From: Octopus vulgaris
Lineage: Eukaryota
Assembly (NCBI GenBank): GCA_951406725.2
Contig: OX597816.1
Coordinates: forward strand, 24,304,001 to 24,368,000
DNA: 64,000 bases
Direction: 5' to 3'
This document shows positions 25,594-26,019 of the stretch, piece after piece; position 1 is the first letter of the stretch; each line of letters begins with the position of its first letter. The position numbers and the translations under genes are program-made. The notes under the pieces were generated by a model, which did no database searches, was not told the DNA's origin, and worked only from the letters and a program-made list of their open reading frames with translations.

Positions 25594-26019
25594 AAATATT
25601 AGTTATCGCCATACTAATATGGCATTCTTATCAAAATAAGAATAAAGCTGACCGCTTATTAGCTCCATGAGGCCATCGCCTTAAGTTAGCTATTTGATAC
25701 ACAAACTGTATCCATATAACCTTTGAACAAGGGAGGTCAGTCGCTCCACACTACTTGGCCGGCAGCTACAGAGATTGTCAGAAGCGACACCTACTGGTTT
25801 GGCTACGCTGCATTGAGAAGGGGCAATACCCCGAAACGCGTCTGTAGCTGCCGGCCAAGTAGTGTGGAGCGACTGACCTCCCTTGTTCAAAGGTTATATG
25901 GATACAGTTTGTGTATCAAATAGCTAACTTAAGGCGATGGCCTCATGGAGCTAATAAGCGGTCAGCTTTATTCTTATTTTGATAAGAATGCCATATTAGT
26001 ATGGCGATAACTAATATTT
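25594..26019. repeat. Perfect 179-bp inverted repeat with 68-bp spacer (Penelope-like inverted pLTR structure) inserted in (TA)n
   Basis: 25594-25772 is the exact reverse complement of 25841-26019, checked base by base. Confidence 0.95.
25807..25848 (+). ncRNA. Minimal type I hammerhead ribozyme motif, U3-A8 core variant
   Basis: Reads GCUGCA | UUGAGAA | GGGG-CAAUA-CCCC | GAAA | CGCG | UC | UGUAGC. C3-G8 is replaced by the compensatory U3-A8, and helix III is the palindrome ACGCGU. Confidence 0.72.

Follow-up and report, generated by a model that had tools for sequence, protein, structure and literature searches.

We describe a 485-bp element (positions 25594-26078) within the window, i.e., the whole 64,000-nucleotide stretch of Octopus vulgaris DNA that was analysed, which is likely to be a short, recent-looking insertion fragment with two copies of a repeat lying head to head around a predicted hammerhead ribozyme. 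It is a known kind of insertion: its layout is that published for Penelope-like elements (PLEs), and by analogy with these its origin was probably of the Penelope type. The account that we favor, with a probability of roughly 0.45, is that both copies were truncated by ordinary Penelope-type processes and that the microhomology joining them overlaps the predicted cleavage site by chance. The relevant features are:

25494-25593 (start approximate), no strand: (TA)n-rich microsatellite of the left flank, the likely insertion target, from the sequence and the (TA)n bias of PLEs reported in the part of PMC8557442 drawn on.
25594-25772, minus strand: left arm, an inverted 5'-truncated copy without the tail, as the exact reverse complement of 25841-26019.
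25768-25772, no strand: junction microhomology of 5 nt, identical to 25841-25845, which straddles the predicted cut; family contigs align from 25768 in all four runs.
25768-26078, plus strand: direct copy, truncated at the 5' end, of a high-copy repeat and likely the pLTR region of a Penelope-like element (contigs of runs X1-X4).
25800-25857, plus strand: type I hammerhead with a predicted cut at 25842/25843 (motif fit, folding and family variants).
25841-26019, plus strand: right arm (sequence comparison).
26020-26078, plus strand: tail on one copy only, within which falls most of the short open frame that starts at ATG 26001 (family alignment).
26079-26135, no strand: (TA)n microsatellite of the right flank (sequence).
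~29024-29185, 32060-32366 and 53138-53335, plus strand (host sense): a third hammerhead-like family in three copies that resemble each other at 72-81% (by eye and a loose scan).
53509-53802, plus strand: second palindrome, of another family, with arms 53509-53614 and 53672-53777 (106 bp, exact) and a 57-nt spacer, serving as an internal control.
11799-57593, plus strand: C1q-like gene with three coding exons, 11799-~12090, ~53890-54110 and 57387-57593 (protein match).
12090-53890, plus strand: host intron, the first coding intron, 42 kb with approximate edges (exon mapping).

As the preliminary description of this DNA had stated, the arms are exact reverse complements (179 of 179 nt) separated by a 68-nt spacer; the next inner position beyond them is a G/G mismatch. 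The zero mismatches set an upper limit of 1.7% on inter-arm divergence (95% limit). Further, all five family-minority variants are common to both arms, one of them accounting for less than 1% of family depth; hence, either a single source gave rise to both arms, or one arm served as the template of the other. The feature does not end at 26019, as had been supposed: 59 nt of family sequence (26020-26078) follow the right arm, and only that arm, before the microsatellite begins. A target-site duplication is unreadable in the (TA)n that lies on both sides of the element. Apart from chance matches of 12-17 nt, the 64-kb window, which is dense in SINE-like repeats and microsatellites, has no further copies of this family.

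According to the part of PMC8557442 drawn on, a typical PLE insertion includes an inverted copy truncated at its 5' end and, on one side, a tail of 30-40 bp, with a (TA)n bias in the Naiads; in that same part the role of the PLE hammerhead is stated as unclear. The account of Adineta vaga Pen2a in PMC3846280, as far as drawn on, gives an inverted pLTR of 181 bp, which falls 37 bp short of the full pLTR, and proposes self-priming. Like the EN+ PLE insertions of these two sources, the octopus element has an inverted 5'-truncated copy adjoining a truncated direct copy, a tail at one end only, an AT-rich microsatellite target with (TA)n on both sides and, as judged from the predicted fold and family variation, a type I hammerhead in the repeat. 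It differs from them in being a 485-bp insertion without an ORF and in the length of its tail, 59 nt as against the published 30-40, and both points weigh against the reading that we favor. An ORF for a reverse transcriptase (RT) or GIY-YIG endonuclease was neither found in this copy nor tied to the family; hence, it is from structure that we infer PLE membership. The frame from ATG 26001 is a possible, candidate ORF start, and a protein search with the 31-40 aa frame near the 3' end returned no relatives, the query being too short to exclude an ORF. Behind 26078, the loose ends read by eye in the frame of ATG 26001 stay open for 10 codons in run X2 and reach a stop at codon 5 in X1, at low agreement (0.64 and 0.56). 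Thus, the earlier suggestion of a young or homogenised insertion of Penelope type is supported by the arms and the layout, its Penelope-type half being a structural assignment made without an RT ORF.

Two other class assignments were considered and rejected. A MITE or DNA transposon is at odds with the 59 nt by which the right copy extends beyond its arm and with inversion points that differ between copies of the family. Similarly, a tandem non-LTR retrozyme, a class treated in PMC7229834 and bioRxiv 2026.07.22.740005 (both drawn on in part), is at odds with the one hammerhead and the lack of a tandem unit at the locus, one tandem joint being seen elsewhere in the family. This joint, head to tail from 26079 to 25800 in X1, returns to the first base of the predicted distal stem I, and depth rises 27- to 47-fold near 25805, upstream of the ribozyme, in X1 and X2; the 25800-25805 signal may mark the usual 5' boundary of the repeat or a subfamily that differs in its upstream part. 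Two family motifs gave no matches in metagenome scans; the four matches from a prokaryote scan, limited to 18-22 nt as against ~35 expected by chance, were discarded. Penelope families in Octopus vulgaris are covered in PMC13282606, in the portion drawn on of which hammerheads go unmentioned; PMC9977147 is a further paper cited here in part.

The spacer and the start of the right arm are predicted to fold into a hammerhead cut after C25842, the fold and site put forward in the preliminary description. Its helix I (25807-25812/25843-25848) has 6 bp, with a distal stem I at 25800-25804/25853-25857; helix II (25820-25823/25829-25832) has 4 bp; GAAA occupies 25833-25836, C17 is at 25842, and helix III (25836-25841) is a 6-nt palindrome. 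The core (25813-25819) is a U3-A8 variant, in place of C3 and G8, and in this form the 3-8 pair, GAAA, UH triplet and helices I-III of a type I hammerhead are all present. A strict descriptor, composed after the motif had been seen, recovers one site in the 64-kb window and none in 2000 dinucleotide shuffles of the element. The Rfam models miss this hammerhead: a search of 25600-26060 at E<=10 returned no matches, and one of the whole window returned, among 150 of 274 rows, only sub-threshold miRNA matches driven by simple repeats (microsatellites). In 26 rows of family variants, the sole core change is at N7 (25817, majority A), and 25830 C>T leaves helix II with a G-U pair at that position. 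In a predicted pair of distal stem I, both partners vary towards A-U (25802 G>A and 25855 C>T), as tabulated separately in a variant table in which same-molecule linkage is not visible. This variation fits the hammerhead fold.

In folding calculations, the pair probability of helix I is 0.94-0.99 when the left arm is absent and 0.0 when it is present, and the monomer has a helix III of only 2 bp. When co-folded, two copies give a double hammerhead whose intermolecular helix III has 6 bp (-46.9 vs. 2 x -20.4 kcal/mol), a structure ~6 kcal/mol more stable than two monomers. A lone copy is thus predicted to need a second hammerhead for cleavage, and the lone intronic copy is likely to be inactive even without the left arm. 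Hence, the earlier proposal that the left arm sequesters helix I and silences the ribozyme stands as regards the predicted pairing, whereas the silencing is probably redundant because the helix III of a lone copy is only 2 bp long, such that cleavage is predicted to require a dimer. The portion of PMC4209133 drawn on describes a dimer requirement, a U3-A8 core for the hammerheads of the Schistosoma Cercyon PLEs, and opposite-strand pairs 100-700 bp apart in Schistosoma. The octopus hammerhead shares with this type the 6-bp helix I, 4-bp helix II, 2-bp palindromic helix III and predicted dimer need, but differs from the PLE hammerheads of that paper in standing singly, without a tandem array or an Rfam match.

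The family was followed in contigs of four sequencing runs (X1-X4, chosen from 24 and read to 76%, 80%, 100% and 100%), aligned on 25745-26079. The numbers of contigs aligning (3728, 1782, 1486 and 693 in X1, X2, X3 and X4) mark it as a high-copy repeat. In all four runs, alignment of the contigs begins at 25768, and the sequence preceding this position differs from that of the window but is common to them, recurring among the loose ends; behind 26078, a common loose end is seen in two of the four among the rows listed. Thus, 25768-25772 is the end of the left arm and also native upstream family sequence, an assignment made from alignment edges and loose ends, with no difference tabulated at those five positions. 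The preliminary description had taken the arm for the 3' cleavage product plus 2 nt and, by extension, for a footprint of self-cleavage. The microhomology explains the 2 nt, but it also removes the precision of the 25841 end, since the breakpoint could lie anywhere from 25841 to 25846. We consider this microhomology, with the breakpoint inside it straddling the cut, to be a new observation, which fits cut and uncut templates equally.

Under the reading that we favor, the palindrome would stem from a single retrotransposition event into (TA)n, with the protein of an autonomous PLE nicking both target strands such that both prime cDNA. The first cDNA would start at the outer start (26078), pass the uncut hammerhead and reach ~25770; the second would start at the inner start (26019) and stop at 25841-25846. 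The two ends would then anneal at the pentamer and be filled in to yield the palindrome, without any need for ribozyme cleavage. Besides the published layout itself (PMC8557442 and PMC3846280, in the parts drawn on), support comes from the anole. According to the part of PMC11167929 drawn on, the PLE protein of the anole cuts and extends each of the two target strands, two start sites defining the tail; unprocessed RNA is its main substrate, cleavage is dispensable in vitro, and none of the RNA-seq reads begins or ends at the hammerhead site. Priming on both strands from two starts, as in Anolis Poseidon PAc, would yield the octopus layout, and the two share a hammerhead in the pLTR and an AT-rich target; in PAc, however, the ORF runs from stem II and the cut falls 26 nt after the start codon, whereas the octopus candidate ATG lies ~160 nt after the cut (PMC11167929, same part). 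In the octopus, the direct copy (25768-26078) itself spans the predicted cut, and family depth is high across it in all four runs, i.e., most family copies span it. Moreover, the homology includes 2 nt upstream of the cut, as expected if homology picked the site. Against this, 26019 is absent as a family-wide 3' end among the loose ends listed (there being 176 further rows).

A comparable principle operates in L1 twin priming, in which two target-primed cDNAs are joined head to head. L1 inversions join non-overlapping parts of one RNA. The octopus insertion shares with them the head-to-head joining of two target-primed cDNAs, but its inverted part duplicates the direct part.

The main alternative, which we regard as possible but doubtful, is that the junction records ribozyme cleavage. 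Here, an RNA with two pLTRs would fold as a double hammerhead, of which the upstream copy is cut and the downstream one stays uncut; a cDNA would run off at 25843 and pair through its last 3 nt with the other cDNA, from which the two extra bases come. The location of the cut inside the microhomology, the reading of the '+2 nt' as native upstream bases and the co-folding energy given above are all consistent with such an event. Precedent comes from R2, in which, as described in the part of PMC3774820 drawn on, the cut of an HDV-like ribozyme determines, across many junctions, both where the cDNA ends and where the genomic 5' junction falls, with extra bases and priming by microhomology. R2 differs from the octopus case in its ribozyme and element class, in joining target DNA rather than an inverted cDNA, and in that the octopus case is suggested by two junctions. 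However, the match of the two extra bases would be a ~1-in-20 (about 0.05) coincidence. Under the favored reading, the overlap is a 4.5% coincidence, since 2 of the 44 possible 5-nt-homology joins in the element cover the cut. The likelihood ratio of cleavage to an ordinary join for the palindrome junction is 0.8-8, a rough figure resting on assumed microhomology frequencies. A cDNA ending at the cut with 3-nt homology and a ~1-in-20 match fits the junction as well as an ordinary microhomology join on uncut RNA does, and the footprint is not established by it.

Other inversions of the family bear on the same choice. Near-cut ends occur in one of three, for which enumeration gives a chance of 0.038 per junction and ~0.11 for at least one of three within 2 nt. 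The one in question, joint 25771>26027 in X3, has left-arm sequence ending at 25771/25772 (equivalent to 25842/25841), 1-2 nt from the cut; it counts in favor of cleavage and against ordinary truncation and is, most simply, a second inversion near the cut. Nevertheless, its end lies past the cut by that 1-2 nt, the joint is seen in a single contig whose short side has 23 nt, and it could have arisen by deletion from the 25594-26078 locus. The other two, opposite-strand joints in X1 (25858/25945 and 25898/26040), lie away from the cut. The count leaves out 26079>26060 in X1 and 25998>25941 in X2 (with inserted letters), which are not listed as inversions, as well as the short skips or returns 25859>25994, 25929>25983 and 26079>25800; none of these five joints has an end within 2 nt of the cut (the nearest being 25859), and adding two junctions raises the chance to 0.17. 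Depth downstream over upstream of the cut is 1.23 and 1.28 in X1 and X2, as a cut template might predict, but 0.90 and 0.91 in X3 and X4; this comparison is inconsistent and uninformative, summed contig depth being no copy number and the X1/X2 ratios being confounded by the alignment-edge ramp. Nor is there a pile of loose ends at 25843 among the rows listed (176 further rows), and the anole in vitro and RNA-seq data favor uncut templates (PMC11167929, in the part drawn on). The portions of PMC8557442 and PMC3846280 drawn on do not relate PLE inverted ends to the hammerhead site, and our search, with subscription papers and supplements outside it, found no paper mapping the ends of inverted copies to that site. 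The opposite-strand pairs of Schistosoma, if they are inverted copies, would keep the whole ribozyme, as ordinary truncation allows (PMC4209133, in part).

The second palindrome provides an internal comparison. It has a ~25-nt tail followed by (AC)n and a hammerhead-like motif with a predicted cut after 53693, through which its arm runs for at least 21 nt, in line with ordinary truncation and against cleavage setting the arm end. With C at position 4 of its core, the motif may be a dead ribozyme, which makes the palindrome a weaker control and blunts this support. The third hammerhead-like family has a minimal motif (U at core position 6, an extra base before helix II and no helix III loop); its motifs at 29099, 32253 and 53225 all span their own predicted cuts, and two of its three copies end in (TA)n. 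The 3' region of the element (25602-25614) shares a 13-nt exact match with that of this other family (32290-32302), at E=1 and possibly by chance. A further minimal hammerhead-like motif, single in the window, lies at ~47255-47345 on the minus strand, next to an (ATT)n/(ACT)n tract.

The perfect arms and the five shared minority variants would also follow from fold-back self-priming, in which one cDNA reaches ~25768, its 3' pentamer anneals 68 nt back, and it copies itself to 26019 before joining (TA)n. The whole 5-nt homology would thereby be accounted for, the bottom strand of the element has no second site for the pentamer, and self-priming has been proposed for PLE inverted repeats (PMC3846280, in part), as has self-annealing for L1-associated inverted duplications (bioRxiv 2024.12.14.628481, in part). 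The L1 cases, however, are small hairpins in the part of that preprint drawn on. Moreover, the fold-back pairs at an equilibrium probability of 0.0001 and so would need help from a polymerase; shared variants are expected as well from two templates of one source element; and fold-back alone leaves unexplained the tail-less end present in both palindromes. We rate it as unlikely. Less likely still, in our estimate, is a hotspot of RNA structure, at which the RT would pause on uncut RNA at the folded three-way junction or the palindromic helix III, clustering ends at U16.1/C17. Both near-site junctions do end at 25841-25842, just upstream of the scissile bond and not at 25843, but there are only two of them, both blurred by microhomology.

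An assembly artefact, by which the inverted arm or its perfect identity would derive from a fold-back read or from polishing, appears the least probable of all. The junction of the left arm at this locus is unseen in the contigs of all four runs: depth at 25745-25756 is 0 in X1, X2 and X4, and the 30 in X3 is due to the X3 joint contig alone (45 x 8/12). A further point for an artefact is that the flanks are microsatellites. Nevertheless, the best share of the words of the stretch in any of the 24 runs is 0.55, so the source individual may not be among them. The native 5-nt homology, the one-sided tail and the published layout speak for a genuine insertion, as do the second palindrome of the same build 28 kb away and the family inversion joints in short-read contigs.

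With respect to its host gene, the exon positions place the element in an intron with the hammerhead on the host sense strand. The gene encodes a product with a signal-peptide-like start, a short collagen repeat and a C1q domain, and the exon 2 peptide matches, at 100% identity, the entry named Octopus sinensis C1q-like protein 3. In the 42-kb intron of the gene, five hammerhead-like motifs have the sense orientation and one the antisense. The second palindrome, ~90 nt upstream of exon 2 and near the splice acceptor, adds a second long predicted dsRNA to the intron.

Finally, we advance only tentatively the broader proposition that Penelope hammerheads cut in vivo and that inversion breakpoints record the cleavage site, the octopus locus and the X3 joint being the first two such footprints. 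If true, ribozyme activity in vivo could be read from any assembled genome, and the formation of inverted pLTRs would be explained. If, on the other hand, the inner ends do not cluster at the cut, the element would be an ordinary young fragment of the PLE type. Either way, the octopus has a predicted hammerhead family missed by Rfam, and an intron of its C1q-like gene carries a predicted 179-bp double-stranded RNA.
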